A stretch of 64,000 nucleotides of DNA from Bacillota bacterium (GTDB taxonomy: Bacteria; Bacillota; DTU065): contig JAQVYS010000001.1 of assembly GCA_028708605.1 (NCBI GenBank), positions 10,928-74,927 of the forward strand. Reading direction: 5' to 3'. Position 1 is the first letter of the stretch; each line of letters begins with the position of its first letter. The notes beneath the pieces are model-generated. The model worked only from the letters and a program-made list of their open reading frames with translations. It searched no databases and was not told the origin of the DNA. Position numbers and translations under genes: made by a program. This document shows positions 2,215 through 55,143 of this stretch, piece after piece.

Positions 2215-2388
2215 ACTAAAGTACCATTACACTAACAACATTGATTATTTCTACCATTTGGGAGATTTAACCTGCCGCTTGTAATTTAATTATATTTTGC
2301 GAACATTATAGCAACTGTTTTTCTTGTTTTAAAATGGTAATATAGATTGCATATTTTTATAAAGGAGGAAGGAATTCCTCCTTTTTTT

Positions 2389-5300
2389 TTACAGATCTAA
2401 TCTTCCTATAAAAGTTTTTACTTTATAAGGGCCAAAAATCATATTTGTGCCCTCTTTGTTCTTCGAATTTTCCAACAGATCAGTCTCGTCAATCAGTTTA
2501 AGGCCAGAATTTACTTTTAATACCTCTCTTCTTCCGAGAGATTCAAAGAATCTAAAGATATAGTCATTAGACTTTTCAGCAAGCTTAATTGTGTCTAAAA
2601 AGACGCCCTGAGACTTTAACTCTATAAACGAATGCTTCTTTGGCAGAGGTCTTATACCATTTGCCTTCGAAGTAGGTATCTCTTTTACAAGGGACTCTAG
2701 ATTCAAGTCGTATGCTTCTTTTATTGTCTTCTGGCACGACACGTCTTCATGCAACAGGACTGAATAGGTGAATTCGTGGCTACCATTGTCAGCATCTTTG
2801 TCCGGATAAGTTGGAGCTCTTAAGAGACTAAGTCCTAAAGTTTGGTCACCAACGTTATACCCATATTTACAGTCATTTAATAACGAAACGCCGTGACTGC
2901 CATCTGAAAGATCTGCCCATTTATGAGCGGAAACCTCATACTGCGCCCTTTCCCATGTGGTATTTTGAAAGGTTGGTCTCTGATACTTACCAAAAGCTAC
3001 ATCAAAGGTAGCATATCTGGATCTAATTTTTGTATCAAAGATGGTCTTTAGAAGGACGTGTTTTTCTTGCCAATCTACCTTAGTTTTAAAATCCACTCTC
3101 TTGCTTTTCTGATACAAGGCAATCTCTTGAGTTATTGTAGATTGGTTTACCTTCCAAGAGGCCTCAAAAGACGTACAAATAGGACCGTTTTCTTTTAACT
3201 TAAACGAAATAAGCTTTTCTGGCTCAAAGCTTACTTCTGCATAGTCTGCATCTATCTCCCATGCGTCCCAAACTAGTGGCCGATCATCAAAAAACTGCAG
3301 ATGATGTTTAGAGTTTTTAATAACAACCTCATCAATTTCAAGGTCTTTGATTTCTGTTACGTTGCCAAATTCACCAAAAGACACTGAAACTAAACCGTTG
3401 TCAAACTCTGCTTCGCTTACTGTAAAAGAGGAAGGCTTCACTTGAGATTTTCGATTTATGACCATATCAATTGTTGTATATCCCATCTCTGGTAGATCAA
3501 CTTCGACAAGAGTATTGCCATCTTTTAATCTTTGCGACAGTAAAACCTTACCTTTATGATCAATAAAGCTTGCATTTTTAGGTAGACCGGCAATTTTTAT
3601 CAAAGTTTTTCTTGCAAATGATACAGTATTAAATACAACAAACCTCTTTTTAACATCTAAATCAATATTATCCATGGTGTTATCGTTTTTAACTACTTCA
3701 ATATTCTTAGCCAGATCCTCTAGAACCTTATCTTTAAGTTTATTTAAGTCTCTATCGACTTCTAGGTAGTCTTTTTCGCTCTTCTCATAAACCTCTCTAA
3801 TACTGCTTCCAGGCAGGATATCATGCATTTGGTTTTTCAAAATAACTTTCCAAGCCTCTTCGATCTCTGTCTTTGGGTATTCGCTACCAATAGCATGAGA
3901 GAACGCAGATAGAATCTCTACATCTCGCACTTTAAACTCCAATTTGCGATTCCATTTTTTATTGCGTGCTTGCGATGTTGTTGTTCCTCTGTGCAATTCA
4001 AGATACAACTCCCCGTCCCAGGTGTGTTTAATGGGCTTTCCGATGATATTGTCTTGAACATAAGAGTCAATATCTCCAAACTCAACCTCCGGCAGAGCAG
4101 GTAGCTTTGACAATAAGCGGCCTTTATTCATTTGTTCGATTGTAACTCCTCCGCCACCATCTCCATAACCAATCAGATGAGCTACTACAGGTAAGATAGT
4201 AGTCCTTTTGGAGTTTTCCATAGCCTGTATCACATCGGGGGCTGTAACATCCTCATTTAGAGCCTTAGGAATAAATACAGGTATTGAAGTGCCATCAATG
4301 CCGCGCCAGTTAAAAACGCAATCCGGCATCTTATTGGTATCATTCCAACCGGTCTTTATAGTCATAAAAGCTTTTGTTCCAGAATCAACAAACAACTGAG
4401 GTAGGCTAGGACTAAAACCAAAGACATCAGGGAGCCACTCAACAGTCGGTACACAACCAAATTCTTCTTTAAAAAACTTCTTACCATAGAGAAGCTGTCT
4501 TACAAAAGCTTCTCCTGAAGGCATATTGCAGTCTGGTTCAACCCACATTCCACCGACTAGCTTAAACTTACCACTTCTAACAGCTTTTTTAATCTCAGTA
4601 TAAAGTTTAGGATAATAGGTCTTGGCGTGAGAAAAAAGCTGAGGCTGGCTCTGGTGATAGATAAACTCGTCGTAAAGCTCACCTAGCCTCAATGCCGTTG
4701 AAAATGTCCGCGAAATTTTTCTTACCGTTTCCTTTTCTGGCCATAGCCATGCTAAATCTATATGACTCTGTGGTATCAAAACAAGCTTACCTGGTAGTTT
4801 ATTGTGCTCGTATTTTCTAAGCTTGGTATCTAGTGTTGCGAGCGCTTCTTTTACTGCTCCATCAAAATCAGATGCGCTGCTAAATGAAACTAGTATTTTG
4901 GTAAACACCTCTTCAAAAGCGTTAGCGATTATGGGATCCGACTTCTCCGCAAGCTTTACTGCTTCTAAAGCTAGATTTGTTAAGAGATCTAGGTCTTTGT
5001 TTACAAAGATAACATGAGCCCTCAATAGAACCTTGGGGGTATCAGACTTGTTAAACGCTTCTATCTTGTACTCGTGAACCCCCTTCGGTATAGGAATAAG
5101 GCGGTGATTTTCATCTAAACCAGCATATGGAACGCCATCTACAAATAAACATGCTTCGCTACCTAAAGAGATATCGAACCAATGATCTTCTTGCCAGAAA
5201 TCACCATTAAAACTTAGAAAGGCAGTTTCAGTAGGCTTTGCCCAGACTTCACCAATTGTAATATCAGAGGACTCTTTTTGATCTTTATATACTCCTGGAC

Positions 5301-5406
5301 TTTCATAGATACTTGTAGTTCTTCGCATTTTGGGTAGTGGTGTAATATCTAAAAAAGCTTGTCTGCGAAACTCTTCAAATCTTCGCTTGATAACATTTAA
5401 GCGCAT
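2389..5406 (-). CDS. GH38 family alpha-mannosidase.
   Basis: 1005 aa. Motifs LIPQSHIDLAWLWP and GGMWVEPDCNMPSGEA match the GH38 metal-binding and catalytic regions. A long C-terminal beta-rich region is typical of bacterial GH38 enzymes. Confidence 0.85.
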   Translation of the reverse strand: MRLNVIKRRFEEFRRQAFLDITPLPKMRRTTSIYESPGVYKDQKESSDITIGEVWAKPTETAFLSFNGDFWQEDHWFDISLGSEACLFVDGVPYAGLDENHRLIPIPKGVHEYKIEAFNKSDTPKVLLRAHVIFVNKDLDLLTNLALEAVKLAEKSDPIIANAFEEVFTKILVSFSSASDFDGAVKEALATLDTKLRKYEHNKLPGKLVLIPQSHIDLAWLWPEKETVRKISRTFSTALRLGELYDEFIYHQSQPQLFSHAKTYYPKLYTEIKKAVRSGKFKLVGGMWVEPDCNMPSGEAFVRQLLYGKKFFKEEFGCVPTVEWLPDVFGFSPSLPQLFVDSGTKAFMTIKTGWNDTNKMPDCVFNWRGIDGTSIPVFIPKALNEDVTAPDVIQAMENSKRTTILPVVAHLIGYGDGGGGVTIEQMNKGRLLSKLPALPEVEFGDIDSYVQDNIIGKPIKHTWDGELYLELHRGTTTSQARNKKWNRKLEFKVRDVEILSAFSHAIGSEYPKTEIEEAWKVILKNQMHDILPGSSIREVYEKSEKDYLEVDRDLNKLKDKVLEDLAKNIEVVKNDNTMDNIDLDVKKRFVVFNTVSFARKTLIKIAGLPKNASFIDHKGKVLLSQRLKDGNTLVEVDLPEMGYTTIDMVINRKSQVKPSSFTVSEAEFDNGLVSVSFGEFGNVTEIKDLEIDEVVIKNSKHHLQFFDDRPLVWDAWEIDADYAEVSFEPEKLISFKLKENGPICTSFEASWKVNQSTITQEIALYQKSKRVDFKTKVDWQEKHVLLKTIFDTKIRSRYATFDVAFGKYQRPTFQNTTWERAQYEVSAHKWADLSDGSHGVSLLNDCKYGYNVGDQTLGLSLLRAPTYPDKDADNGSHEFTYSVLLHEDVSCQKTIKEAYDLNLESLVKEIPTSKANGIRPLPKKHSFIELKSQGVFLDTIKLAEKSNDYIFRFFESLGRREVLKVNSGLKLIDETDLLENSKNKEGTNMIFGPYKVKTFIGRLDL

Positions 5407-5470: not shown

Positions 5471-5968
5471 TTAAATTGCAGGAGTTATTAATAGAGTAAT
5501 ATCTGTTTTATAGATGCTACCCTCTGCTAATGCCATATCGCTTGGGAAAGAGAGAACCTGTTGATATTTCAAATCATAAACATCCTCGGCTCCTGATATT
5601 TCCTTTTGCTCTGCAAGAACCATCGAATTCTCCAAAGTCAGCCAATTGACTCCTCCGTCGATACTGACTTTGAGAGCTTCCTTCAAACATGCGTCGCCGT
5701 AAACACCCGAGGATGTTACAAATTCTTTGAGATAGATGTTCTCTGTATGGAGTTCTATTCTATAAGCAATATTTGAACTCACTTTTAACGCCATAGTTGG
5801 CGTCTCATTCGCACCAACAGAGAGTTTGCCAAAATATAGCTCTGTATCTGGCCAACTCACCTGAAGCATAGGTTCGATCTGCGCCATCACCTGCTGACTA
5901 AATGACTCAGCCTGTACACCTACAACAACACACAACAAAACTACCAACAACAAACACCTTTTTGACAT
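5471..5968 (-). CDS. Small secreted protein of unknown function. It is the third gene of the secreted operon that starts at 9929.
   Basis: 165 aa. N-terminal signal peptide MSKRCLLLVVLLCVVVGVQA. The body looks beta-rich and ends with alternating hydrophobic residues. Only a 53-nt gap separates it from the upstream 1059-aa gene. Confidence 0.5.
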   Translation of the reverse strand: MSKRCLLLVVLLCVVVGVQAESFSQQVMAQIEPMLQVSWPDTELYFGKLSVGANETPTMALKVSSNIAYRIELHTENIYLKEFVTSSGVYGDACLKEALKVSIDGGVNWLTLENSMVLAEQKEISGAEDVYDLKYQQVLSFPSDMALAEGSIYKTDITLLITPAI

Positions 5969-6021
5969 CTAACAACTCATCCTTTCTAGAGATAAATGCC
6001 GGTTTTGATTTCCACTGGATC

Positions 6022-9000
6022 CTACTTACTACTTTTCCCAAGCGGAATTAAATAGGTAAGATAGATCCCAGTGTCTTGTTCGCTAAGTCGCGTCTCTAGT
6101 TGAAAGTTGTCAGTCTTGAATCTGTAGAAACCTTGTAACCGGAAATTGTCTTTCAAACCTAAATGATATATCCCTTCTACTCCAAGTTGGCTCCATTTAG
6201 AGAGAGCAACATCCAATTCTGCTGCTGCAATTACTACATCGGTTTCAAGATTACCTGTAACAGCCAGTTTTATTGCTGTTTTAGAAAGTGGTAGATGGTA
6301 TTCGGTTTTTATATCATCATCGTTAACGGCAACAAATAACAAACTGTTTTTTGGAAGAACTGTCACCCCAAGTGTCTTTTTTAAATTGGCTTTCTCATTA
6401 CATAAAGAGATCTTAGTCCAAACCGACTTCGTATCATAAACTAGTTCGAGAAGGGAGAATTCAGGACTTATGTGCTCCCATTCGGCACTTACAGTTAAAG
6501 GAACCTTGTTATGAGCAAGGCTTACGGCAATCTTAGGTTTTCCCTCCCTAGGATTTCTCCAAACCCCTTCTACGTATCCGGAAAACCCTAAGATTTTATA
6601 CATCATCCTCGTCGAAAAAGTATCTATCTTCTTACCATTAAATCCTTCCCTACTTGCACTGAAAACAAGATTTTTAGGCCACTTTATTGACCCTGAATAG
6701 AAAAAGTATTCACTATTAAAATTGGTAAAGTCACCTTTTTCCATCGTGAGCTTCTGTTTTATCATTGCTCGTACCAGACGGTTTTCAAAATCAAAGGTAA
6801 ACTCGCCTCGGTTTGAGTTTTGCCCCTTGCTCACCAATATATAAAGATTGCTGTCCCAAGTGCCATCATAATCTAACTGGTAACTAAGGCTAGTTTCTTT
6901 AGCGTTAAAAAGTCGCACCTTATGGTTTGTTGTTAGAGTTCTAAGCAGAGCTGTAGCATCTTGACTGTACCTTCCCAAACTCCCCTTTAGACTCAAATTA
7001 CGGTACTTTAGATTGCCCATAAGTCCCTGATCTTCTAAATGCCGATAAAGATAAATACCATTTTCCTTTTCCTTAAATCCTATGTGCCCTCCACCAAAAA
7101 ACTTGTCGCTTTTTTGACCAGTTTCGCAAAGATAGGAGACTATTAGATAGTTATTTAACCCTAATTGATCTTCTTGCACTAAAGGCCTTTTCAGTTTAAC
7201 TGATTTTTTATCGACATAAAAATCCAGGCTATAGGTTTTAATAACCTGATTATAGCTGTTTCTTGATTCTACAAAAACCCTTACACTACCCTCTTTTGGT
7301 AGCGAGGTTAGGACAAAAGGCCCCGTTGTGCCATCAGCTAAAAACTCATCTTCTTTTTTTGTCTCAAGATAAAAGCCACCAGTGAGTTTGCACTGCAGAC
7401 CATCTTCAGGAGCAAGATCGAGCTCTGCACCTACCAAAGCTATAGAGGCGTAGGTTTCTCTAAGAGGCGAAGCAGAATAAACTGTACCTGCTCCGATTTT
7501 GAAATCGCCAACTTCATAACTAAACTGCCAGGGAGTTTTGTCTAAAATCGAGCTTTTAGTCGCCCATGTGGGGTAAGGGGTATAAGAATAGCCTTTAGGT
7601 AAAATATACGGATAGATAAATGCTAGCTTAAGCTTGTCTGTATCATAAAAACCTTTGACTCCAAAGTCTAGCTCGCCTGTAGCAGCAAGGTTTGCTTTAA
7701 ATTCCAAAAGTCCAAACTTTTTATTTCTACCACCTTGCAATTTAATGCGCTCTGAATACTTTGAAACGTTGAGAATATGCGGCTGATTACCTATCAAAAG
7801 GCCATAGCTGTCAGGCTCTAACTGTAAACTAAAGAAATTTTCGTCTGGGTCTATAAACGACCCATCTGCTAAATAGAAGCCTTCTGATGCTTCGCCAATT
7901 AAAATTCCTGGTTCGCTAAAAAGCCCTTGTGTCACTTTTAAGATGCAGGTTTTTTCTATTTCAATAGGCGTATCATCTTTTGTGTAGGCACTAACCCTTA
8001 TTTTAATTGGATAGGTGCCCTCTTTTACCGAAGGAAGCACTACAAGATCTGCATCTATCTCTATTTCTTCTTTGCTCTCTAATACCTCTTTAAAACTGCT
8101 TTTCCTGACGGTTTGCCCATTTTCAGACCACACTACACCTTCAGGCAGTGTCATTTCTATCCTAATATCCTTAATGTTTCCAACAGATAGATTACATAAA
8201 TCAAGAGAAAGCGTGCCTCGGCTACCTTCTTTTATCGTCTCCGCAGAGATAGAAGCTTCTACCTTTAAGCCATCTATTGGGTTTAAGAAGATATCTCTGT
8301 TTATTACCTCTCCTGCCAGGACATTTACTCTTTCGCTAGCCTTGTGGCCATTTTGAGTACCAGCACATATACTATAAGATCCTTCTTGTAGCTGCACAGA
8401 GAAACTTTCCCCCGCAGCCCCAGCTTTCCGAGAAATCAGCTCGCCTACGTCATTGTAAATTTCGATAAATGGCTGATCATTCTTAGCTATGTTTCTAATA
8501 TTACCTTGTAAAACTCCCCATTTTGACATATCAACTAGCGTAAAAGAGCCTTTTGTTACAACGCTTTCTTTGCCCGTGACCTCATACCTGTACTCTCCAC
8601 TTGGCCAATTAGTACCATCTGCATATTTGGTATCTACACTGATCTCTCTACAATCATTAACAGCCTTATGAAAGAGGATTTCATCACCTTTATATATCTT
8701 GATATCAGCTTCTTTAAGCTTTTCGTTTGCAAAGATAATCCTAGCAACATCTCCTGGCTTAACGTCTTTAGGATTGCAAAACGAAGTGTAAAGACTGCCA
8801 GAATTTAGCATATACATAATTTCTGTTTCATAATTCTCAGCTACAAGCTTATCATCCCAATAAGGATCAAAACGGTACTCTAATGTCAAAGACGTAGGCC
8901 CGCTTCCAAAGTAAAGACACTGACTATACTCTTGGAGCTCGAGCCAGTTGCCATTATTTACTCGTATACTAATCCTCTCTGGTGGAAGAAAAATCTCATT

Positions 9001-9201
9001 GTTTTTGTAAACCGCTTTCAGACTCTTTGCTGAAACCTCTAAGTTCCAGGCAGTATCACTTTCTATATAAAGACTTACAGATTCATGCAACTCATTTGCA
9101 AAACTATTTGGGGCACCAGTTAAGTTTACAGCAAGCAACTTATTGTTTTCAGCAAAAGCTGGGGAAGCTAAAAGTATGAAAAGTATAAGCAGCAAAATCA
9201 T
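6022..9201 (-). CDS. Large secreted multidomain protein. The N-terminal half has Ig-like or CARDB-like beta-sandwich domains. The C-terminal half has an amphipathic beta-strand pattern consistent with an outer-membrane beta-barrel. Function unknown; possibly a usher-like or porin-like component.
   Basis: 1059 aa. Signal peptide MILLLILFILLASPAFA. Its start overlaps the stop of the upstream 243-aa gene (9198-9201). The C-terminal ~500 aa show alternating hydrophobic/polar residues and a C-terminal aromatic-rich segment. Confidence 0.55.
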   Translation of the reverse strand: MILLLILFILLASPAFAENNKLLAVNLTGAPNSFANELHESVSLYIESDTAWNLEVSAKSLKAVYKNNEIFLPPERISIRVNNGNWLELQEYSQCLYFGSGPTSLTLEYRFDPYWDDKLVAENYETEIMYMLNSGSLYTSFCNPKDVKPGDVARIIFANEKLKEADIKIYKGDEILFHKAVNDCREISVDTKYADGTNWPSGEYRYEVTGKESVVTKGSFTLVDMSKWGVLQGNIRNIAKNDQPFIEIYNDVGELISRKAGAAGESFSVQLQEGSYSICAGTQNGHKASERVNVLAGEVINRDIFLNPIDGLKVEASISAETIKEGSRGTLSLDLCNLSVGNIKDIRIEMTLPEGVVWSENGQTVRKSSFKEVLESKEEIEIDADLVVLPSVKEGTYPIKIRVSAYTKDDTPIEIEKTCILKVTQGLFSEPGILIGEASEGFYLADGSFIDPDENFFSLQLEPDSYGLLIGNQPHILNVSKYSERIKLQGGRNKKFGLLEFKANLAATGELDFGVKGFYDTDKLKLAFIYPYILPKGYSYTPYPTWATKSSILDKTPWQFSYEVGDFKIGAGTVYSASPLRETYASIALVGAELDLAPEDGLQCKLTGGFYLETKKEDEFLADGTTGPFVLTSLPKEGSVRVFVESRNSYNQVIKTYSLDFYVDKKSVKLKRPLVQEDQLGLNNYLIVSYLCETGQKSDKFFGGGHIGFKEKENGIYLYRHLEDQGLMGNLKYRNLSLKGSLGRYSQDATALLRTLTTNHKVRLFNAKETSLSYQLDYDGTWDSNLYILVSKGQNSNRGEFTFDFENRLVRAMIKQKLTMEKGDFTNFNSEYFFYSGSIKWPKNLVFSASREGFNGKKIDTFSTRMMYKILGFSGYVEGVWRNPREGKPKIAVSLAHNKVPLTVSAEWEHISPEFSLLELVYDTKSVWTKISLCNEKANLKKTLGVTVLPKNSLLFVAVNDDDIKTEYHLPLSKTAIKLAVTGNLETDVVIAAAELDVALSKWSQLGVEGIYHLGLKDNFRLQGFYRFKTDNFQLETRLSEQDTGIYLTYLIPLGKSSK

Positions 9202-9929
9202 TTTTGAAGCACGTACTCTACGACATCTGTAGCCAGATCAAGGCTAATATCGTAGACTAGATCCTCGTTTCCAATCTTTACCTCTAACTGCCCCGTTGTC
9301 TTAGATAAGTAAAGTGGAATTTGAATATTAAATACCCTTGTTACACCTGGTAAGACAATGCCTTGAGTAGAGTAGCTCCTAGATATTTCTCCGTTATCTA
9401 ACATACTCACTCTAAGCTCAGTTTTAAAATGCTCGAGACCGTTATTTTTGATCTTAATCTCAAAAAACGCATTTTCATCTTTCTGGCTAAACACCAACTC
9501 TTCTAACTCTCCCTCTACAGAGCTATCCCCTTTTTTTAATATAAAAGGCACTGCGATAGCTTGGGAGAAAACTTGGGTATCTGATGCTACTTGTCTAACT
9601 ACTGCCACTTCATAAAGTGACTCTTTAACGTTCTCTCTTTTTAATTTTACGCTCGCTTTTGATGCTGCTTCAACGACTATAGTGTGGCTTTTAGGCATAA
9701 GTTGAGCATTAAGATTTGGACTTGCTGAAATAACCCCATTAGCTTTTTGAGTTAATCCTAAAATTTCAACCTCAACTACCACATCGTCTTTTCCCTGATT
9801 GTAAATGTCCACTGTCAAAGTCTCGGGGAAGTCACCAGCAATTCCCTCAAATATTGCAGGTGAAATGATCAATGCGGCAGAACACTGAAGAGAAAGAAAG
9901 ACTACCACTAAAAGCAAAGTACGCTTCAC
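9198..9929 (-). CDS. Secreted protein with two Ig-like domains and a pattern like PapD-type periplasmic chaperones. First gene of the secreted operon.
   Basis: 243 aa with a GTG start. RBS AAAGGGGA lies 8 nt upstream. Signal peptide MKRTLLLVVVFLSLQCSA. The N-domain pattern ISPAIFE...LTVDIYNQG...VVVEV, an ESLY motif and a second beta-sandwich resemble pilus chaperones by eye. Confidence 0.45.
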   Translation of the reverse strand: MKRTLLLVVVFLSLQCSAALIISPAIFEGIAGDFPETLTVDIYNQGKDDVVVEVEILGLTQKANGVISASPNLNAQLMPKSHTIVVEAASKASVKLKRENVKESLYEVAVVRQVASDTQVFSQAIAVPFILKKGDSSVEGELEELVFSQKDENAFFEIKIKNNGLEHFKTELRVSMLDNGEISRSYSTQGIVLPGVTRVFNIQIPLYLSKTTGQLEVKIGNEDLVYDISLDLATDVVEYVLQK

Positions 9930-10255: not shown

Positions 10256-11554
10256 ATGAAAAACAGATTGCGGGTATTGGTACTTTTTGTATTACTTTCT
10301 TTTGTCATTATTTCAAGTGCTATGGCAAAAGAAATTAATATTTGGTTAGTAGCTACAAGTGAACGTGCTAGAATCATAAAGGATCTTACAGACAACCACT
10401 GGACCCCTAAAACAGGTGTAGAAGCAACCTTTTCAACTATGACTTGGGAAGATGCAATGTCTAGAATTTACCTTGCTATGGCTTCTGGCGATACGCCGGA
10501 TATAGCACAGATGGGTTCTACCTGGCAAGGCGAATTTGGTTTAAGGGGTGGTATCCTAGATTTAGCTAAAGCCTATCCTGAAGAAGTAGCAGAAATCATG
10601 AGTCGGATGTATCCTGGAACGGTAACTCCTATTATTTTTAGAGGTACAACTTGGGGTGTTCCAGCTTCATTAGGTAATATGACCACATATGTAAGAGATG
10701 ACATCTTTACCGAAAATGGCTGGGCTGTACCAGATACGTGGGAAGAACTATATACACTACTCCCTAAGATGCAAGCAAAAGAGATGAACTACGGTATCCA
10801 CTATGGAGCAGACAGTATCAGCTGGTTTGTTACTTCAGCTTTTTTAAGACAGGCTGGCGGAGACGTTTATGAGTCAGGTGGCGAGCACTCAACCTTAGAT
10901 ACACCAGAATCAATTGATGGTTTTATACGATTTGTAGAGCTATTTACAAAACATGGAGTTCCTAAAGCAATTCAACAGGTTGAGGATTTTAGACGCGGAG
11001 ATATTCCACTGCTTACAATCTCAACCACTGTTGTTTATGGTACTTATCTATATGCCGCACCAGAGCTTAATGGTAAATGGTCAACCGCTCTTATGCCTGG
11101 CACTATTAGAGAAGATGGTACTATTAACCATTCTGGTTATCTCGGTACCAATAACTATGCTATCTTTGAAAGATCGGAAAATAAGCGTGCAGCCTTTGAA
11201 TGGATTCAGTGGTTTACTAGTGCTGAAATACAGACTATCTTCTCTAAAGAATATCAACAAAGAGTGTCTGGCGCTTTCCACCTCTCACCAAATGTAGAAG
11301 CTATGGCAAACATGGCGATCCCAGATGCACATAGGCAAGTCCTTATGAAGCAGCTCTCTGAAGATATTGGTATTCCATTTGCCCTAGGCGGAGAGACTGT
11401 CTGGAGATATGTCGAAAACGCGACAGCTAGAGTTATCTTTAATAATGAGGATCCAGAAAAATCAATTAGATTTGCTGCAAAGGAAGTAACTGACGAGATG
11501 CAGCGCAAAGCTAAAGAATTTGAAAGATTCCTTAAAATGCTACCAGAAAGTTAA
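10256..11554 (+). CDS. ABC transporter extracellular solute-binding protein, family 1 (carbohydrate-binding type).
   Basis: 432 aa. Signal peptide followed by AKEINIW, and family-1 SBP features throughout. RBS AGGAGGA is upstream. No cognate permease or ATPase is adjacent. Confidence 0.8.
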   Translation: MKNRLRVLVLFVLLSFVIISSAMAKEINIWLVATSERARIIKDLTDNHWTPKTGVEATFSTMTWEDAMSRIYLAMASGDTPDIAQMGSTWQGEFGLRGGILDLAKAYPEEVAEIMSRMYPGTVTPIIFRGTTWGVPASLGNMTTYVRDDIFTENGWAVPDTWEELYTLLPKMQAKEMNYGIHYGADSISWFVTSAFLRQAGGDVYESGGEHSTLDTPESIDGFIRFVELFTKHGVPKAIQQVEDFRRGDIPLLTISTTVVYGTYLYAAPELNGKWSTALMPGTIREDGTINHSGYLGTNNYAIFERSENKRAAFEWIQWFTSAEIQTIFSKEYQQRVSGAFHLSPNVEAMANMAIPDAHRQVLMKQLSEDIGIPFALGGETVWRYVENATARVIFNNEDPEKSIRFAAKEVTDEMQRKAKEFERFLKMLPES

Positions 11555-12174: not shown

Positions 12175-12227
12175 GAGGGGGCTATAAGTATGCTAAACAT
12201 TTAGCATTCTAATAGCCCCTCTTTTTA
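12175..12227. terminator. Nested hairpin followed by a T-tract between convergent genes. Terminator for mscL on the plus strand, possibly bidirectional.
   Basis: Outer stem GAGGGGGCTAT/ATAGCCCCTC with an inner ATGCTAA/TTAGCAT hairpin, then TTTTTAT. Confidence 0.5.
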
Positions 12228-14216
12228 TCCTTTATACCATCTAAAAAATCCTAGGTTCTGACTCTTAGTCGGTAGCTTTCCGTCTTTTGTTGCAATTAGC
12301 TGAGGTTTTTCATCCCCTAAGAACATTGCCTCAACTGTTTCTGGAACAGCGATACTAAGCTCAATTTCTTCTTTGTCTTCTGGATTATAAAAGAGAATCA
12401 TCTCTTCTTCTAATGAGCTGTAGCGTTTTGCAAAGTCACTATTAATACCGTTATCATCTACAAAGCGTGTTCTCCTTAGTTGTGGCTGTATCTCAGTTCT
12501 AATTCTAAATAGTTTGGTGAGAAAATCCCAAAGCTCTGGATCGTCAAGCACGTGATCGTATAGCCAAAAATGTGTGCCTAAAAGAAACATTTTCGAAGAG
12601 ACTTCTACTGGGTTTAAGCCTATTGCATCGACATCAATTGGTACCGGTTTTGGGTGTACCATATCGATATGGATTATCTCTGGCAAAGTATACTTATAGA
12701 TCTCTGGGTGACCGTATGGTGTATATAAACCCCAGCTTGCATGTACTAGCTGCGCTCCTACGTACTGGCTATAGATATCCCCACAGCCTTCCATAATAAA
12801 AAACGGATCTCCCTCTGCTTCTTTATTGAGAGAACTCAAAAGATCTCGGTAGCCTAAACTCCACATATCATGTCTATCATGGGTATGCTCGTTAGCATAG
12901 CACATTCTTGGGAAGGACCCCACCTGATCGATATACATTCCTGTTGCACCCATATCGTTAATAAGCCAAAGAATAGTGTCCTTAAGGATCTTAGTCCAGC
13001 TTTTCTCAGCAAGACACATGCAACTAAAAGTCTCTCCACCGTATTTTTCAGTGTACTCGCTGCCATCTTTATTTCTTGCTGCCATCTTTTTGCCAAGTGT
13101 CTTATAGAATTCTGAGCGATGATTGAAGATTCTGGTGTTTATATAGAAACTAATCTTTCCATCATCAGCTTTGACATAATCAATAGCTTTTTTAAGATCC
13201 CTAATTGTCCCTAGCTCGAGATCGGGGAAAAATTGTGGATAAAGAGTATCGAACCCACCTTCGTTCCAAGCAGATACGTATAGGTGTTTAAATCCAGCAT
13301 CTTTAGCCATTTCGTACAATTCTGGAATGTCGCTAAAGCGATGACAAATTTCTCCAGATTGAAATTTAAAATCATAATGCACAACCAAGCCATTTTCTTC
13401 CCATACCCACTCTGGAACAGGACCAGGTTTATACCAAGTAAGAAGCCAAGCCCGATATCTTCTTGCAGCCTCATGCCAATCGCTATTTAGATAAGAAAAC
13501 TCTGCAAGACCCGAATCAAAGGACTCCTTGCCTCCAAATTTTTCTAAAGCTAGAAGTAATGAGTCAGTGCCTTCAATGTGCATATAGGTGTTGTAAAACC
13601 TCTCATCATAAGAGGCGATATAAAACCCTTCCTCTTTACTACCATAAAAGAGCCAAGGCATAGAAGCAAGTCCTGCATAACCGATGCGATAAGTGTTTTT
13701 ACCGCCTTCATGGATACATCCAGGGATACCTTCTACTGGCCTAGCCACAAAATACTCATGCCAAGAGCAAGACGCAGTCTTTACGTTGAGCTTCATGGTG
13801 TTTACAGGATCTGGTATGATTTCCCCAAAGTTATTAGTTGTGATTAACTCATCATCATCAACTTTTAATCCTGCAAAACATGGGAATCTGTATAAAGAAC
13901 CCACTCCTTTAAGTCTACCTGTAATTTTGTGTTCTCCAAAGACCAATCTAAGGGATGTTTTGTCTTTATAGGATAGAGTTAAAGAAGCATCCTTGTTATC
14001 CCATGCAAAGTCTGAGAGTTCTAAATCTCTAGGACCAAACCAGCTTTCGCCTTTTTTTATTTTAAAAGGCCCTTCAACCTTATGAGGTCCAAGACCAGTA
14101 ATAGCGCCACTGGTTTTTTCAATCGACACGATAAAACCCAAGTCAATTTCGACTGTGCTTTCAGTCTCTTTTATAGGCCAAACAAAACTTTGTGGTTTAG
14201 TAATTGCCTTTGACAT
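12225..14216 (-). CDS. Hypothetical cytoplasmic protein, possibly a glycoside-hydrolase-like (TIM-barrel) enzyme.
   Basis: 663 aa with no signal peptide. Acidic and aromatic clusters (HLYVSAWNEGGFDT, MGATGMYIDQ) are reminiscent of GH-like domains. The family was not identified by eye. Confidence 0.35.
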   Translation of the reverse strand: MSKAITKPQSFVWPIKETESTVEIDLGFIVSIEKTSGAITGLGPHKVEGPFKIKKGESWFGPRDLELSDFAWDNKDASLTLSYKDKTSLRLVFGEHKITGRLKGVGSLYRFPCFAGLKVDDDELITTNNFGEIIPDPVNTMKLNVKTASCSWHEYFVARPVEGIPGCIHEGGKNTYRIGYAGLASMPWLFYGSKEEGFYIASYDERFYNTYMHIEGTDSLLLALEKFGGKESFDSGLAEFSYLNSDWHEAARRYRAWLLTWYKPGPVPEWVWEENGLVVHYDFKFQSGEICHRFSDIPELYEMAKDAGFKHLYVSAWNEGGFDTLYPQFFPDLELGTIRDLKKAIDYVKADDGKISFYINTRIFNHRSEFYKTLGKKMAARNKDGSEYTEKYGGETFSCMCLAEKSWTKILKDTILWLINDMGATGMYIDQVGSFPRMCYANEHTHDRHDMWSLGYRDLLSSLNKEAEGDPFFIMEGCGDIYSQYVGAQLVHASWGLYTPYGHPEIYKYTLPEIIHIDMVHPKPVPIDVDAIGLNPVEVSSKMFLLGTHFWLYDHVLDDPELWDFLTKLFRIRTEIQPQLRRTRFVDDNGINSDFAKRYSSLEEEMILFYNPEDKEEIELSIAVPETVEAMFLGDEKPQLIATKDGKLPTKSQNLGFFRWYKG

Positions 14217-15497: not shown

Positions 15498-16121
15498 CTA
15501 TTTTTCGAACCAAACTTTAACATAATCATAAGAAGCGGCTGTCTGGTTGGTTCTTAGGGAGATGAAATCGCCATCATAGATTGGTAATTCATCGAACCAT
15601 TCAATCACTAACGCATCATCGAGATAAACGGTTATACGACCGATTTCTGTCTCATACTCAACACGGACAACATGAGTCATGCCAACTACTGCTGGGTTCA
15701 TTTTAGTTAAAACAACACCACTGATTCCGCCACCTTCGCAGCGATATAGTTGCATCTCGTTAAGATCTTGGAATACCAAGTAGCTGTTACCACGTTGTGG
15801 AAGGTCGCCGTCAGAAGCCATGAAGTGGAGACCTGCTGCAGGTGCATACTGTCCACCAGATGCATCGTAAGTGATCTTATACTCGTAGATAAATTTGCCA
15901 TCACCATACTGTGCTAGCTCTTGCCAAATATTTGTATTTCCATCTGCTAAATCATAACCTACCATAAACTCTCCATCGATATCCCATTCCCCATTTACTG
16001 GTACCCAGTCAACTTCCTTACCATCTGTCTTATTGAAGTTAGCTTCATAAATCAATTGAGGAGCAGCAAATGATACAGCAGCAAATGCTAAGACTAGAAA
16101 AATTGCAAAAACCTTTTTCAC
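15498..16121 (-). CDS. Secreted DUF1080-like (concanavalin/LamG-like jelly-roll) protein, possibly carbohydrate-binding or a 3-keto-disaccharide-hydrolase-like protein.
   Basis: 207 aa. Signal peptide MKKVFAIFLVLAFAAVSFA. The beta-rich body shows the DUF1080 pattern (EWDIDGEF..., GLHFMASDGD..., LVFQD). Confidence 0.5.
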   Translation of the reverse strand: MKKVFAIFLVLAFAAVSFAAPQLIYEANFNKTDGKEVDWVPVNGEWDIDGEFMVGYDLADGNTNIWQELAQYGDGKFIYEYKITYDASGGQYAPAAGLHFMASDGDLPQRGNSYLVFQDLNEMQLYRCEGGGISGVVLTKMNPAVVGMTHVVRVEYETEIGRITVYLDDALVIEWFDELPIYDGDFISLRTNQTAASYDYVKVWFEK

Positions 16122-33520: not shown

Positions 33521-35236
33521 TTAGTCAATGAATTCCTCTTTTAAAGCATATGTACCAACTTTTACTCTCACAAAGTCCAGAGAAGAACCTAAAGCTACCT
33601 GAATCGACTTCGGTGAGTAATGAGCTTTGTCAGGCAACATTTCGTTAATTAGCTCAGTTATTTCTCTGTAATGTGCTGGGCGGTTTAGTTTCTTTATAAC
33701 AGCTTTTGCATAATCTACTCTTCTTTTTTTGATAAGTAGTGATTTTCTTGTAAGTTCCACTGTTTGGTCGGGTAGTAAGGCTAGCTTTTTAGAATTACTA
33801 ATCGAAGACCTAATTAAATCCTCATCCTTATTATAGGTTGCTACAATCATCTTAGCTAAAACATCTAAAGAAAGTGGCCCACTCTTTATTATAATAGATT
33901 CAGCCTCATATGCGATGAGATCGACCTGCTCTTTATCTATCTTATTTAGTGCCCAAAGACCATCTGATAACTCTTTGCAACCTGAAAGACTTAGAAACAG
34001 AGGAATGACGCTTGATGGGTTAACATTAGTAGCTTTGTGTTTTTTTAGTATCTGGGATTTAATAAGACTTATATTTGCTATCCCACCTGCATCTTCAAGA
34101 GTTTTTCTAAATACAACAAATAAAGATTCTGCCGCCTTTATATTTGATGCTGCAAACAGTTTTTTACGAGCCTTCTTTTCTATCTGCCTAACTCTTTCTC
34201 TAGATATATTATAATCTTCTGCGATAGCTTCGAGTGTCTCTGGAGATAAAGCAAAAATTGCTAAACGTCTATTTAAAATGTCCTTTTGCCTGCTAGATAA
34301 AGTCTCCTGTATAAGATGGATGTATTCGTCTAGTGTTTGGAATTCTATTAGCTCCGAATTAGGACTACTATAATATCTATTCAGTTCATATTGAATGCTT
34401 TCAAGAGATTTCGCACCAATATTTGCGATGTTAAGCAAGTCAGATTCTTTTAGATTAGCAATTTCCTCTACATAGCGAAAACCACTCTTTTTTAAAGCAT
34501 TATACGCTCTGTTTGTAAAATCAAGGCTTTCAATTGGGGTCTTGTACTCGTCGATACCACCTACTTGGTACATCTCTTTACAACTAGAAATTTTCTTGCC
34601 AGTTACAAGACTGTAACGTCTTAATAAATTCTCAAGTGAACTAGAACCTATTCCTCGAAGGTTAGAGAGCTCTTCTATACTCATATGTTCTAGTTGGCTA
34701 ACATAAAAAAGCTTGTTTCTTCTCAGGGCATTAAGAGTTCTGTTGTCTAAGCCTAAGTTAGACAACACTAAATCGCCTTGATCTTTTTGAAGATAGTAAA
34801 CTTTAATAGCCTTTTGAATATGCTTATAAGTATTTTCGCCTATGCCTTTGATCTGTAGTAATGTCTTTTTATCTAAGGAAACTAGCTCTCCTAAAGTAGA
34901 AATACCTGCATTAGTCAAGCTTTGCAATGCCCTACGGTTTAATGCTAGAACTAAAAGATCGAGATTATTATCTTCTTCGACTGATGATATGTTGTCAGTT
35001 TTCTCTTTGTGAACCTCGAGATTTAGATTAGCGATCTTTCTAGTTATCTCTGTTGCAGTAACTTGTCCAAGTTTTGGGATCTCTAACAGCTCTTCAAATT
35101 TGATGCTAGATATTTTCCCATATGTGTCAAGACCAGCATCCAAAAGAGCTCTTACTGCACGGGTCGAAAAACCTAATTCAACTACTGAAGTAGTTGAGTT
35201 AGGAGTGCCAATAGGTGAAGTTTTTGCAAGAACCAT
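33521..35236 (-). CDS. Chimeric transcription-related protein. It has four tandem RNA polymerase alpha-subunit C-terminal-domain-like (alpha-CTD, HhH) repeats, a sigma-70 region 4 HTH domain, an unknown middle region and a C-terminal HARE-HTH domain (RNAP delta-subunit-like).
   Basis: 571 aa. Repeats at aa 17-70, 91-147, 156-210 and 235-288 each carry the alpha-CTD pattern (for example ELGFSTRAVRALLDAGLDTYGKIS...ELLEIPKLGQ). Residues 305-360 read LSSRQKDILNRRLA...ETLEAIAEDYNISRERVRQIEKKARKKL, which is sigma region 4. Residues 506-567 read PAHYREITELI...FVRVKVGTYALKE, a HARE-HTH signature. Confidence 0.6.
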   Translation of the reverse strand: MVLAKTSPIGTPNSTTSVVELGFSTRAVRALLDAGLDTYGKISSIKFEELLEIPKLGQVTATEITRKIANLNLEVHKEKTDNISSVEEDNNLDLLVLALNRRALQSLTNAGISTLGELVSLDKKTLLQIKGIGENTYKHIQKAIKVYYLQKDQGDLVLSNLGLDNRTLNALRRNKLFYVSQLEHMSIEELSNLRGIGSSSLENLLRRYSLVTGKKISSCKEMYQVGGIDEYKTPIESLDFTNRAYNALKKSGFRYVEEIANLKESDLLNIANIGAKSLESIQYELNRYYSSPNSELIEFQTLDEYIHLIQETLSSRQKDILNRRLAIFALSPETLEAIAEDYNISRERVRQIEKKARKKLFAASNIKAAESLFVVFRKTLEDAGGIANISLIKSQILKKHKATNVNPSSVIPLFLSLSGCKELSDGLWALNKIDKEQVDLIAYEAESIIIKSGPLSLDVLAKMIVATYNKDEDLIRSSISNSKKLALLPDQTVELTRKSLLIKKRRVDYAKAVIKKLNRPAHYREITELINEMLPDKAHYSPKSIQVALGSSLDFVRVKVGTYALKEEFID

Positions 35237-48787: not shown

Positions 48788-49420
48788 TTACTTTGGGGTG
48801 CCTTCCTGCAAAACTGCTTTTTCGTCTAAAACACTAATCCGAAACTCACAGTATTGATCGCCGTTTGCACAACATTTTTCTTCCACCACTTCTACCTTTT
48901 TACCGAGCTTTGCCTCAAAAGCACCTGCTGCTGTACCTGATTCGTAGACACAGATCTTTAGGCCAATGTTTGGAAGACCATAACAATCTGCGCATTCGTA
49001 GGTCCGGTAGATGGCCTCATTGTCTGTAACTTTTACAATCTCCTGCCGGCCATACTTGTGCTCTGGGGCTATACGAACATTGCTTTCAAGCAGTTCTTTT
49101 AAATTTGTGCCAGTAAGACTTGGGGCTATATATGCTGCACCAATTACCTTACCAATTTGATAACTAAGAGGTAGAAGCTCTGGAAAAAGCATAAAGGTAA
49201 AGGTTTGTCTATCTCTCATATAGAGAATCTGCATTTCGTTGCCGAATGTAGGACGGATCTGCCGGCCTTCAGCTAAAGCCTTATAGTGATCGTTTATGGC
49301 TGCAAAAAGTTCTTTTGCTTTAGAGGCTTCTTCCACAAGATCACGATACGCCCCAGAGGTCAAGCCTGCTGATGCCTTGATTAATGTGTGGAGTCTTGTG
49401 TAATCAGACATAAGTATCAC
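48788..49420 (-). CDS. V4R-domain protein (predicted small-molecule-binding), embedded in the nucleoside uptake operon.
   Basis: 210 aa. The C-terminal CVYESGTAAGAFEAKLGKK...CCANGDQYCEFRI carries the V4R conserved Cys pattern. Its start overlaps the upstream permease gene by 17 nt. Confidence 0.6.
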   Translation of the reverse strand: MILMSDYTRLHTLIKASAGLTSGAYRDLVEEASKAKELFAAINDHYKALAEGRQIRPTFGNEMQILYMRDRQTFTFMLFPELLPLSYQIGKVIGAAYIAPSLTGTNLKELLESNVRIAPEHKYGRQEIVKVTDNEAIYRTYECADCYGLPNIGLKICVYESGTAAGAFEAKLGKKVEVVEEKCCANGDQYCEFRISVLDEKAVLQEGTPK

Positions 49421-50357
49421 TCCGATCGAAATGTTTGCCTACAGCCTTAGGTGGTGACACTTTACGGACAAAACCACCTAATACTAAAATTGTCACAATA
49501 TACGGTAACATTTGTACAAACTGTGTTGGCCAGCCGTAAAGTTGCAAATTCATCTCTATAGCACTCGTAAGTCCGAACAAAAGTGACGCCAGCACAACCC
49601 CTACAGGATTCCAGTTACCTAAAATAGTGGCTGCAACTGCTATATAGCCTCTGCCACTTACCATATTTCGCGAAAACATACTCAGCTCCCCAAGCGAAAG
49701 ACATGCTCCACCTAGACCTGCAAACATCCCACCTAAAACTACTGCTAAGTACTTGTAAACAAAAACCTGTATGCCTAGACTATCTACGGCTGCAGGATTT
49801 TCGCCAATTGCTCTTAGCCTTAGACCCCATTTTGTTCTGTAAAAAACAAACCAACTAATAATCATAATTGCAATCATCATATAGAAGAAGGGAGATTGTC
49901 TAAAGAAAATTTCACCGATTACAGGTATATCACTAAGACCTGGTATATAAACAGGGTATATTCCAGCTACGTCAGGAGACTTACCTCTGTTTCCCCAAAT
50001 GGCAACAAGCAAAACTGCAGTAATGCCTTGTCCCAGAAGGTTTAAAGCTACACCTGAAACCACATGATTAGCTTTAAACTTGAGGGTAAAGATAGCTAGA
50101 ATTAGAGCCATTACTCCGCCTGCAATAAGCGAGAAAACTACTCCCGTCCAGGGGTTACCGGTAAGAAATGACCCTAAAACGCCAAAGAAGGCTCCAACTA
50201 ACATCAGTCCTTCTAAACCTAAATTAACAACTCCAGCCCTTTCACTATAAACTGCTCCAAAGGCAGCAAGCCCGAGAGGAGTCGCCATTCGTAACATACT
50301 TGATATAAGCCCGATGATTATATATGCCGCGTCACTTGTCAGCCACTGTTCTAGCAT
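49404..50357 (-). CDS. Nucleoside ABC transporter permease (NupC / BMP-system permease 2).
   Basis: 317 aa. Polytopic, with the ABC-2/branched-chain-type permease pattern. Its start overlaps the upstream permease gene. Confidence 0.8.
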   Translation of the reverse strand: MLEQWLTSDAAYIIIGLISSMLRMATPLGLAAFGAVYSERAGVVNLGLEGLMLVGAFFGVLGSFLTGNPWTGVVFSLIAGGVMALILAIFTLKFKANHVVSGVALNLLGQGITAVLLVAIWGNRGKSPDVAGIYPVYIPGLSDIPVIGEIFFRQSPFFYMMIAIMIISWFVFYRTKWGLRLRAIGENPAAVDSLGIQVFVYKYLAVVLGGMFAGLGGACLSLGELSMFSRNMVSGRGYIAVAATILGNWNPVGVVLASLLFGLTSAIEMNLQLYGWPTQFVQMLPYIVTILVLGGFVRKVSPPKAVGKHFDRSDTYV

Positions 50358-51381
50358 GCTTTACCCCTCCCTTCTTCCAATTTATTTTTAAGGTTTTAAG
50401 TAACTCAGGAGCTGAAACAAACAGAATAATTGCTGCTTGGATGATAATTACAAAGTCAACAGGTACGTTTGTTGTTCGATCTAAGATCATGCCACCTGCT
50501 CTCATTAAGCCAAATAAAAGTGCTGAAAACAAAACACCAAGCGGGCTATTGCCTCCTAAAATAGCTACAGCAACTCCGTCAAAACCATACCCTGGAGAAA
50601 ATCCGTCAATATAACGACCATGTAATCCTAAAATCTGACCTGCTCCGCCAAGACCAGCTAAAGCCCCTGAAAGTAAGAGTGTTAAGCCAATCATCTGAGG
50701 AACATTAATACCAGCAGCAGCAGCTGCTCTAGGATTAGATCCTACTACTTTAAGATCGTATCCAAGTTTGGTGTGGTAAAGTAAAAACCAAACCACCAAA
50801 ACAAAAAATAACCCTACAAATAGCGCACTTGAAAACTGTGCCCCTTGGCCTAGTCTAGAAAGTGCTGCACTCGAATGAATCGTTGGTGTTTGAGGCACAG
50901 GGCCAGGTGCTTTAAAGGTGTAGTTTGCAAGATAAGCACAGAGTAAAGTACCGATACTATTTAGCATAATTGTAATGATAACTTCGTTGGCATCAGCTTT
51001 AATCTTTAGCCACGCTGCAATTAAAGCCCAAAGACCACCAAAGAGTGCGCCACCACAAAGAGCAATAATCACATGTAGAAGATGGGGAAGTGGTGGCAAG
51101 TAAGCGGCCAAAACAGCCGCTGCCATTGCTCCTAAATAGAGCTGGCCTTCAGCGCCAATATTAAAGACCCCACAATTATTAGCAAGCGCTACAGCAAGAC
51201 CTGTAAAGATTAGGGGCGTCGCTTGCACTAAAGTCTGTGCAATCCCATCCCAGCTACTTACAGCTCCCCATATCATTGCCTTATATGCTGCAAGAGGTGA
51301 GTATCCACTAAAATACAAGACAAGACCTGCTGCAAATAAGGCTAAGACTAACCTACAAGCTAGATTAAGAACCCTCCTCAT
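50332..51381 (-). CDS. Nucleoside ABC transporter permease (NupB / BMP-system permease 1).
   Basis: 349 aa polytopic permease. Its start overlaps the ATPase stop. Confidence 0.8.
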   Translation of the reverse strand: MRRVLNLACRLVLALFAAGLVLYFSGYSPLAAYKAMIWGAVSSWDGIAQTLVQATPLIFTGLAVALANNCGVFNIGAEGQLYLGAMAAAVLAAYLPPLPHLLHVIIALCGGALFGGLWALIAAWLKIKADANEVIITIMLNSIGTLLCAYLANYTFKAPGPVPQTPTIHSSAALSRLGQGAQFSSALFVGLFFVLVVWFLLYHTKLGYDLKVVGSNPRAAAAAGINVPQMIGLTLLLSGALAGLGGAGQILGLHGRYIDGFSPGYGFDGVAVAILGGNSPLGVLFSALLFGLMRAGGMILDRTTNVPVDFVIIIQAAIILFVSAPELLKTLKINWKKGGVKHARTVADK

Positions 51382-52892: not shown

Positions 52893-52959
52893 TTTTCCAG
52901 CCTCCTAATCCAAGAAGAATCGCTGGCAAAAAACCAGCGATTCTTTAGCCCCTAGTCTA

Positions 52960-53991: not shown

Positions 53992-54003
53992 GTTGTGTTC
54001 CTC

Positions 54004-54861
54004 CTATTTAGCCAAATTTTTTTGAACTTTAGCATCGACGTCAGTCCGGTAATCTAGACACTTACACTCATTTGGACCACAATTTGCAAGAGTGCGTAGC
54101 ATTAAACGACCAATCTTAGGTGCTGAATCCTTGTAAAGATCAAAGATCTCGTTACCATGCCAATTGGTTATCATGCCTTCTGCATAATTAGAAATAAGAT
54201 AAATACTAGCAATGTGAGCGCCAATTAATCTGGCATAGTAAACCTCTGGTGAGAGTGTGATGCCAGCAATATCTGCATGAGCGTTGTGTAGCATTTTAAC
54301 CTCTGCTGCGCTCTCAAAACGCGGACCTTGACTTGTAGCGTATACGCCACGATTAAAAACTCTAGGAAATTCCTTTTGTGCTTCTTGGTACAGCGTATCT
54401 CTTAGAGTTGGGCAGAAAGGATCTAACATTCTTACAATTTTATTTGGAATCAGTGCAACCGTTGGCTCTTTTCTCATGTCAATATAATCTGAAGGAATAA
54501 TTAAATCACCTGGATCAAGCAGGGTGTTTATTCCACCGCCACTGCCTTCTACAACAATGTTTTTCACGCCAGCTTGCATAAAAACCCAAAAGATTTGTTC
54601 TGGTCCATTTGCTGGCGCATCAGCTGAATGCCAGCCATGAAATGCTGCAGAAAGAACTAGCCTGTCTTTGTGATCTGCTGTTATCTCTTTATCTAGTTTT
54701 AAAAGCTTTAGAGGAACAGTTTCACCGTAAGGGGTTTGAAAAACTAAATTGTCTTCTAATACCTCTACACCTTTTAGGCCAATGTCCAACGGGAAATCTC
54801 CAGCCCAGGTCCCTGAACCACCAATGTACGCGTATTTAACTGCGGGAATTGTTTGAGTCAC
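54004..54861 (-). CDS. Purine nucleoside phosphorylase of the MTAP/PNP (PNP_UDP_1) family.
   Basis: Motifs YIGGSG, GPRFESAAEVKM and DIAGITLSPEVYYA align to MTAP/PNP-I. The likely start is the GTG at 54861, 8 nt after GAGGAGG (VTQTIPA...). The ORF track extension to 55038 runs across the riboswitch terminator and is rejected. Confidence 0.75.
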   Translation of the reverse strand: MTQTIPAVKYAYIGGSGTWAGDFPLDIGLKGVEVLEDNLVFQTPYGETVPLKLLKLDKEITADHKDRLVLSAAFHGWHSADAPANGPEQIFWVFMQAGVKNIVVEGSGGGINTLLDPGDLIIPSDYIDMRKEPTVALIPNKIVRMLDPFCPTLRDTLYQEAQKEFPRVFNRGVYATSQGPRFESAAEVKMLHNAHADIAGITLSPEVYYARLIGAHIASIYLISNYAEGMITNWHGNEIFDLYKDSAPKIGRLMLRTLANCGPNECKCLDYRTDVDAKVQKNLAK

Positions 54862-54875
54862 AAAAATAACCTCCT

Positions 54876-55104: not shown

Positions 55105-55143
55105 AATATTCGTTTATTAATTCAATATCAATCTGACATCTTA

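Follow-up and report, generated by a model that had tools for sequence, protein, structure and literature searches.

Does a set of three contiguous genes for secreted proteins in a member of the Bacillota (Firmicutes) encode a chaperone-usher (CU) type assembly system? The CU pili and archaic CU systems are known from Proteobacteria, Cyanobacteria and Deinococcus-Thermus (PMC4654587), and in our literature searches no description of such a system from Firmicutes was found. The three genes, referred to here as A, B and C, occupy positions 5471-9929 of a stretch of 64,000 nucleotides (nt) from contig JAQVYS010000001.1 of a bacterium of the DTU065 lineage (assembly GCA_028708605.1); this whole stretch is called the window. 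The reading to which we incline, with moderate confidence, is that A-B-C constitutes a highly divergent CU-type module for the assembly of a surface fibre or surface complex in a diderm member of the Firmicutes_G (a DTU065-like class). The three genes are as follows:

9929..9198, minus strand: gene A, 243 amino acids, GTG start, a protein with a Sec signal and two immunoglobulin (Ig) domains
9201..6022, minus strand: gene B, 1059 amino acids, a beta-rich secreted protein, candidate usher-like assembly platform
5968..5471, minus strand: gene C, 165 amino acids, a small secreted subunit that weakly resembles SCPU pilins and may bear a donor strand at its N-terminus

A preliminary description of this DNA had pointed to three overlapping or nearly contiguous genes whose products all carry signal peptides, and this is borne out. 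The stop of A and the start of B overlap by 4 nt, as do csuC and csuD in the archaic CU system of Acinetobacter, whereas B and C are separated by a spacer of 53 nt, and a further spacer of 64 nt lies between C and a downstream gene, also on the minus strand, for a GH38 alpha-mannosidase. Each of the proteins A, B and C has one N-terminal hydrophobic segment followed by an AXA-type cleavage site (CSA before A, AFA before E and VQA before E, respectively), and scans of the three sequences revealed no second transmembrane (TM) helix, no LPXTG motif and no lipobox in any of them. The three Sec-signal proteins are translationally or transcriptionally coupled and are kept as a unit. The other features recorded in that description, viz. 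the ESLY motif and two beta-sandwiches of A, the Ig/CARDB-like N-terminal half of B and its beta-rich C-terminal half, also hold. A subunit-like first domain in B, the missing carboxylate anchor of A and the probable co-transcription with the GH38 mannosidase, which are considered below, were not part of it.

The relationship of protein A was examined using archaic CU clusters from plasmids (viz. Acinetobacter csu, Burkholderia, Klebsiella, Paracoccus, Rhizobium and Ralstonia) as the comparison set. A profile of the A family matched four sigma CU chaperones with a hhalign probability of 93.5% and E=2.2e-7 over 185 columns, covering both domains, and when seven CU chaperones were used the match was obtained with E=7e-11 over 193 columns; the controls, consisting of reversed and unrelated sequences, gave E=0.1-0.3. 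Further, in a tblastn search of 7.3 gigabases of plasmid sequences, the only significant matches of A were Sinorhizobium genes annotated as 'molecular chaperone' (E=2e-4, 25% identity, residues 1-202), and the protein concerned is a true PapD_N member (PF00345, E=4e-11) that also matches the A profile with E=4e-11. In the databases, A is closest to an orphan PapD_N 'molecular chaperone' encoded on plasmid pB of Sinorhizobium meliloti (L022, 5992-6711), next to which no usher or pilin is annotated. The residue features of archaic chaperones have been defined by Pakharukova et al., who reported that Pro59 in strand D1 of CsuC is the only invariant residue of the CU superfamily (PMC4654587). This residue corresponds to P79 of A, a position without variation in the six sequences of the A family, Pro7 of CsuC corresponds to the invariant P24, and the G1 strand of CsuC aligns to the conserved sequence QAIAVPFIL of A. 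An AlphaFold2 (AF2) model of A based on 3 sequences contains two beta-sandwiches, with a mean predicted local distance difference test (pLDDT) score of 65 and a weak first domain, and its cleft geometry is not to be trusted. The highest Foldseek matches of this model are the Enterococcus faecium WxLIP structures 9i1y and 9i25 (E=2e-7), which are followed by CsuC, CfaA and EcpB (~1e-6). A sequence search of PDB with A gave CsuC at E=0.35 only, which is uninformative. Based on the two-domain profile matches, the tblastn result and the residue mapping, A is by sequence comparison a remote, CsuC-like homologue of the archaic/alternative (non-classical) CU chaperones, and the chaperone-like character initially proposed for the 243-residue protein is thus supported by profile, tblastn and fold evidence and specified to this class. 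The similarity does not extend to the classical CU pili (FimC/FimD/FimA): hhalign found no match of A to E. coli FimC and no similarity of B to FimD, and the Arg8/Lys112 anchor is absent from A.

Protein C is the putative subunit of the module. Immediately after its signal peptide there is an alternating strand (F23-Q25-V27-A29-I31-P33), which is invariant in five C orthologues, as is the C-terminal Ile of the protein. When C was compared by hhalign with nine SCPU pilins, two short colinear local matches were obtained, one between C 27-54 and the N-terminal strand and FG..L/DFG motif of the SCPU proteins (E=0.008) and the other between C 98-118 and their v.IDGG motif (E=0.006), the controls giving E=0.18-0.76. 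The last strand of C (GSIYKTDITLLIT) also resembles, as judged by eye, the SCPU ending G.Y.DT..VTV. The resemblance of C to SCPU pilins in these sequence motifs is suggestive only, and a PDB sequence search with C returned noise. A second relationship of C is found within the module itself, as the C family matches the N-terminal domains of B by hhalign (E=3.2e-4, C 97-162 on B 75-133); this common domain is visible by profile comparison only, since BLASTP of C against B finds nothing. The same motif that is present in C and in domain 1 of B is also seen at the C-terminus of the subunit (FVLRFEPSFDD...YAITLTYTAGVGY) encoded by a related contig of high GC content (L015), and B likewise has a conserved N-terminal strand, LLxLNLxGxP.

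The regions of protein B that can be distinguished are the following:

8797..9144, minus strand: B residues 20-135, first beta-sandwich, homologous to C; AF2 pLDDT ~80
7927..8796, minus strand: B residues 136-425, three further Ig-like domains (FlgD_ig-like, CarboxypepD_reg-like and NPCBM_assoc/CARDB-like)
6025..7719, minus strand: B residues 495-1059, conserved beta-rich region, candidate outer-membrane barrel
7132..7353, minus strand: B residues 617-690, an inserted domain similar to the plug of ushers (TTGPFVLTSLPKEGSVRVFVESRNSYNQVIKTYSLDFYVDK)

In the AF2 model of B, which is based on 6 sequences, residues 36-425 form four beta-sandwich domains (pLDDT 65-85). The Pfam matches in this Ig-like half are weak (FlgD_ig, NPCBM_assoc and CARDB types) and a Foldseek search with the model returned only generic tandem Ig/MG domains, e.g. 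those of complement and A2M. The indication of an usher comes from the C-terminal half. Residues 622-665 of B, within the insert, provided the top hhalign match to the usher plug with each of three usher profiles, at borderline values (E=0.005-0.03), and they align to the usher pattern GPF.l..vP..G.G.a.vv..d..G......PFy. When the insert alone was the query, E was 0.028 with 4 ushers, falling to 0.005 when 10 ushers were used, and with the 570-residue C-terminal half of B as query against 10 ushers the plug was matched with E=0.031. None of the 60 shuffle controls reached the real score of 27.2 (30 column shuffles, maximum 22.6; 30 block shuffles, maximum 26.8), and between distant usher classes, too, it is the plug region that can still be detected. 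The insert is flanked by beta-rich sequence of ~120 residues before it and ~370 residues after it, a spacing that would be compatible with 6+18 strands of a barrel; in ushers the barrel is 24-stranded and the plug lies ~100-120 residues into it. Further, a distant homologue of B (P0010) ends in GVFRLLW, resembling the terminal strand of an outer-membrane protein, and B of the window ends in IYLTYLIPLG and a short tail. Other searches of this region were uninformative: Pfam and PDB sequence searches with single sequences and profiles of the C-terminal region gave no match, a tblastn search with the C-terminal half against plasmids found no ushers, and in a home-made scan for strand amphipathicity the C-terminal and Ig halves could not be told apart. 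Suboptimal B-usher alignments appeared promisingly colinear with 4 ushers, but this was not reproduced with 6 or 10 and was not used. Given the secure chaperone homologue encoded next door, we consider it rather probable that B is usher-derived; the usher assignment is, however, unproven and B should be regarded as a candidate.

Taken together, the similarities of the module to the archaic (sigma) CU pili (Acinetobacter Csu, encoded by CsuA/B-A-B-C-D-E, and the SCPU fimbriae) are the two-domain PapD-like protein with the invariant Pro, which is closest to the archaic/alternative class, a protein C with an alternating N-terminal strand, FG..L and v.IDGG motifs and a last strand of the G.Y..D.T..V. 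type, and a plug-like insert of the form GPF...G...V...D/N..G...FY in B. If the favoured reading is correct, A would bind unfolded C in the periplasm, its G1 strand (QAIAVPFIL) filling an open groove of C, and the A:C complexes would be received by B, which would form a plugged barrel in the outer membrane (residues ~495-1059). Polymerisation of C would then take place as the strand of A is replaced by the conserved N-terminal strand from the following C; the C-like domain of B, together with its own conserved N-terminal strand, could serve as a built-in anchor, tether or terminator subunit. The resulting fibre or complex would probably serve in the capture of mannose-containing glycans (mannoside/mannan), as the module is probably co-transcribed with a cytoplasmic GH38 enzyme and located beside genes for a periplasmic sugar-binding protein and a DUF6259 protein.

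A number of observations weigh against this reading. None of the three proteins reaches the Pfam thresholds: Pfam/NCBIfam scans of the A family gave nothing over threshold, with PapD_N (PF00345) unmatched in all six members even at E<=5; the C family had no match in a similar search that included SCPU (PF05229), and the conserved pair of SCPU cysteines is absent from C; and homologues of B did not match Pfam Usher, PapC_N or PapC_C. B over its whole length compared with ushers by hhalign gave E=0.13-0.2, which is not significant. The usher N-terminal domain (NTD) and the C-terminal domains CTD1/CTD2 were looked for in B and none was found, the N-terminal 425 residues being four Ig-like domains unrelated to PapC_N. 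B thus differs from the archaic ushers in having four to five N-terminal Ig-like domains, the first of them subunit-like, in place of the NTD, and no recognisable CTDs. No barrel is demonstrated in B, because AF2 did not fold residues 426-1059 (pLDDT <50), although long hairpin strands of 9-12 residues are predicted there. Of the outer-membrane barrel first proposed for the 1059-residue protein, the beta-rich character and a borderline plug-like insert stand and the barrel itself is a candidate, and for the pilin-like nature of the 165-residue protein the weak colinear matches to SCPU and the conserved N-terminal strand are in favour, whereas the SCPU Pfam membership and the cysteines are lacking. 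In A, it is the carboxylate anchor that is lost. The C-terminal carboxylate of the subunit is anchored by Arg89 and Tyr196 (and Arg174), and this is the most characteristic feature of the non-classical chaperones (PMC4654587). In the A family, Arg89 is replaced by E/Q/P107 and Tyr196 by I/V/L191, the latter change lying inside an otherwise common G[YI]VLPG.TR motif, and Arg174 corresponds to K169 (K/R in five of the six sequences). As judged from the alignment, A fails one defining functional feature of the non-classical CU chaperones. Also on this side are the resemblance of A to the Gram-positive WxLIP family in both hhalign and Foldseek searches, the absence of any outer-membrane biogenesis gene, which was sought within the 64-kb window, and the operon fusion with a cytoplasmic mannosidase, which is atypical of pilus loci. 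The module further differs from archaic CU loci in having one subunit gene, no tip adhesin, a co-transcribed GH38 gene and a Firmicute host.

The resemblance to WxLIP leads to a different explanation, according to which the three genes specify a WxL/Csc-like, non-fibre surface complex. In this case A would be a WxLIP-like scaffold that holds C, as well as the C-like domain of B, through an inserted strand, and B would display Ig/CBM-like domains to bind mannans of plants or microbes on behalf of the utilisation genes alongside. Apart from the Foldseek matches noted above, this finds support in a local hhalign match between A and Enterococcus WxLIP (E=3.4e-5), which is limited to 52 columns, and in a weak match of A to WxLIP_PGBD (PF06030; E=0.12, cutoff 27.3 bits). 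A shares with WxLIP the local motif ETLTVD..N....VVVE; residues 36-56 of A (ETLTVDIYNQGKDDVVVEVEI) are almost the same as ETLTVDLRNDTDKEVVVEAQI of the Enterococcus gilvus WxLIP (L023, 4854-5939). The logic of the cluster is also the same as in the WxL/Csc clusters of Lactobacillales (WxLIP, i.e. DUF916+DUF3324, with small and large WxL proteins), viz. a two-Ig-domain partner protein, a small one-domain protein and a large protein bearing a copy of the domain of the small one (PMC10599100), and in both cases sugar-utilisation genes are close by, the present module being kept beside glycan genes. However, WxLIP consists of a PGBD (PF06030) and an HBD (PF11797) followed by a C-terminal TM helix, it has the motif NQIDKxxxYFDLK, and its cluster contains two proteins with C-terminal WxL domains (PMC10599100), whereas A has neither the TM helix nor the HBD nor this motif, and C and B lack WxL motifs. 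The C and B families did not match three Enterococcus WxL proteins (one E=0.05 was confined to the signal peptide; others 0.28-0.66). Further, the common domain is N-terminal in B but C-terminal in the large WxL proteins, the envelope of the host is probably diderm, and A fits the CU chaperones across both domains far better than it fits WxLIP. Due to these differences, we regard a WxL/Csc-like complex as unlikely.

The two relationships of A can also be combined. As A resembles WxLIP locally, while no similarity to WxLIP is seen in the sigma CU chaperones, the sequences suggest that the A family may link the CU chaperones and WxLIP. It is conceivable, though we consider it rather doubtful, that the module is a surviving intermediate between the diderm CU pili and the WxL/Csc complexes of monoderm Firmicutes. 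An ancestral Firmicute CU-type system would then have comprised a plugged usher, joined to an anchor domain of subunit-like type, as well as a chaperone that holds the subunit by a different anchor, WxLIP would descend from this chaperone lineage after the loss of the outer membrane, and in both settings the system would be devoted to the capture of glycans and not to host adhesion.

Whichever function is assigned to them, A, B and C are real genes and not chance open reading frames (ORFs), since their orthologues, with 40-62% identity, occur in the same order in related contigs. The order A-B-C-GH38 recurs in four settings, viz. a metagenome-assembled genome (MAG) named 'Clostridia bacterium DTU065' (L008), L013, a JGI contig (L014) and a contig from a fermentation metagenome (L016), so that a check of synteny in relatives, which had been advised at the outset, shows A-B-C to be conserved as a unit. 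L013 and L010 are metagenome contigs identical to the DTU065 locus, and the DTU065 MAG is the nearest and only genome found to carry it. The usual companions nearby are genes for a divergent sugar-binding protein and a DUF6259 protein and a Polysacc_synt_2 gene. The identity of the relatives to the window proteins is 31-53% for A, 40-51% for B and 43-62% for C. On the high-GC contig L015 (1-3790) the order is C(partial)-A-B, GH38 is lacking and a GFO_IDH_MocA oxidoreductase gene follows the module instead; the B homologue encoded there, of 853 amino acids, has the C-terminus VFRLLW, like that of an outer-membrane protein. Conservation of the three genes as a unit does not depend on the surrounding genes. 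The B family is also very rare. When 1.84 billion representative proteins were searched exhaustively with B using phmmer, only 7 were returned: P0001, which is 99% identical, the full-length P0005 (44%) and P0006 (40%), the fragments P0007 and P0008, a repeat protein matching one Ig-like domain only, and the distant high-GC homologue P0010 (853 amino acids), whose relationship to B is secure across the N-terminal half (hhalign E=3.5e-12). A word-index protein search found only near-identical copies of B and two relatives of A at ~50% identity, but this search missed the 985-residue DTU065 orthologue of B, which is encoded on ENA, JGI and GenBank contigs, and its negatives are untrustworthy for the B family. 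The DTU065 orthologue (L002, 10316-13273; L008, 9953-12910) lacks the third Ig-like domain (residues ~232-308 of the window B), and its signal peptide, unlike that of the window B, ends in a lipobox-like LLGC. The corresponding C orthologue is interrupted in L008 by a run of N (scaffold gap, 12977-13400) and hence not callable there, and it is intact in L010 and L013.

The genes surrounding the module bear on a further explanation, and the relevant features are these:

2389..5406, minus strand: GH38 alpha-mannosidase, downstream of C (Pfam Glyco_hydro_38N/C, E=2e-70), no signal peptide
2361..2384, strand not assigned: hairpin and T-run directly 3' of the GH38 stop, where the A-B-C-GH38 unit probably ends
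10256..11554, plus strand: sugar-binding protein SBP_bac_1, divergently transcribed, with a non-lipoprotein signal peptide, kept as a neighbour
12225..14216, minus strand: DUF6259 protein, cytoplasmic, probably glycosidase-like, kept as a neighbour

No terminator-like hairpin was found between C and GH38, whereas one is present after the GH38 stop, and on this sequence pattern A-B-C-GH38 is probably one transcription unit. The SBP_bac_1 protein also neighbours the locus in L001-L004, L008 and L014. This arrangement could be taken to mean that the module is an outer-membrane device for glycan uptake, in which B would be a mannoside-specific channel, possibly usher-derived, with A and C as accessory proteins, supplying the periplasmic sugar-binding protein and, in the cytoplasm, the GH38 and DUF6259 enzymes, without formation of a fibre. 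The single transcription unit, the retention of the order in four lineages with the sugar-binding protein and DUF6259 alongside, and the division between an exported binding protein and two enzymes without signal peptides are all in accordance with uptake. However, L015 retains C-A-B without GH38, the porin and TonB-receptor families are unmatched, and a channel needs neither a chaperone homologue nor the donor-strand-like invariant N-terminus of C nor the subunit-like domain of B. An uptake device without a fibre is thus, in our view, improbable.

The CU-type reading, as well as the uptake device, places B in an outer membrane. Both of the solute-binding proteins (SBPs) that were checked, viz. 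SBP_bac_1 and the product of a Bmp gene (52960-53991, minus strand), have cleavable signals and neither has a lipobox Cys. Lack of this residue is the rule for periplasmic SBPs and an exception in monoderm Firmicutes. A, B and C are without a wall anchor of the monoderm type (LPXTG, SLH or TM). DTU065 is the sister class of the diderm Limnochordia in Firmicutes_G (PMC11456536). From these three observations the envelope of the host is probably diderm, which lends indirect support to the deep-branching diderm Firmicute suspected earlier. If the host were instead a monoderm, B would be a soluble or wall-associated multidomain beta-protein and A an orphan PapD-like protein that has nothing to do with the assembly of fibres; the lack of an outer-membrane gene in the window, the failure of AF2 to yield a barrel and the existence of orphan PapD_N proteins without an annotated adjacent usher, as in Sinorhizobium (L022), agree with this, but the signals of the two SBPs, the sister relationship to Limnochordia, the missing wall anchors, the plug-like insert of B and the C-terminus of P0010 all speak against it, and a monoderm host appears quite improbable. 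Three further readings were rejected: a sortase pilus, as there is neither an LPXTG motif nor a sortase; a TasA/SipW system, as a signal peptidase gene is lacking; and a TonB receptor or autotransporter, as these families were not matched.

Elsewhere in the window, a 207-residue secreted protein without a family match (15498-16121, minus strand) is kept in the same neighbourhood of the DTU065 genome (L008, 2026-2757). A 571-residue ORF (33521-35236, minus strand) combines three RNA polymerase alpha-CTD repeats with HHH motifs and a sigma-70 region 4, which is an unusual combination of domains. A purine riboswitch (Rfam RF00167, 84 bits; 55022-55123, minus strand) is located just upstream of a PNP_UDP_1 gene and an operon for a Bmp/PnrA-type nucleoside ABC transporter (49404-55038).

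If the CU-type reading of A-B-C is correct, the CU pathway would extend to the Firmicutes_G, beside the diderm Limnochordia, in a phylum that is central to the debate on the transition from diderm to monoderm cells. The usher in this case would be of unprecedented architecture, with N-terminal Ig domains including a subunit-like one and neither an NTD nor CTDs, and the chaperone would have lost a carboxylate anchor that is considered essential. The A family would further constitute a bridge in sequence between the CU chaperones and the Gram-positive WxLIP family. For the organism itself, an uncultured inhabitant of digesters, the operon link to an alpha-mannosidase suggests that the fibre or surface complex may serve for glycan foraging in anaerobic digesters.

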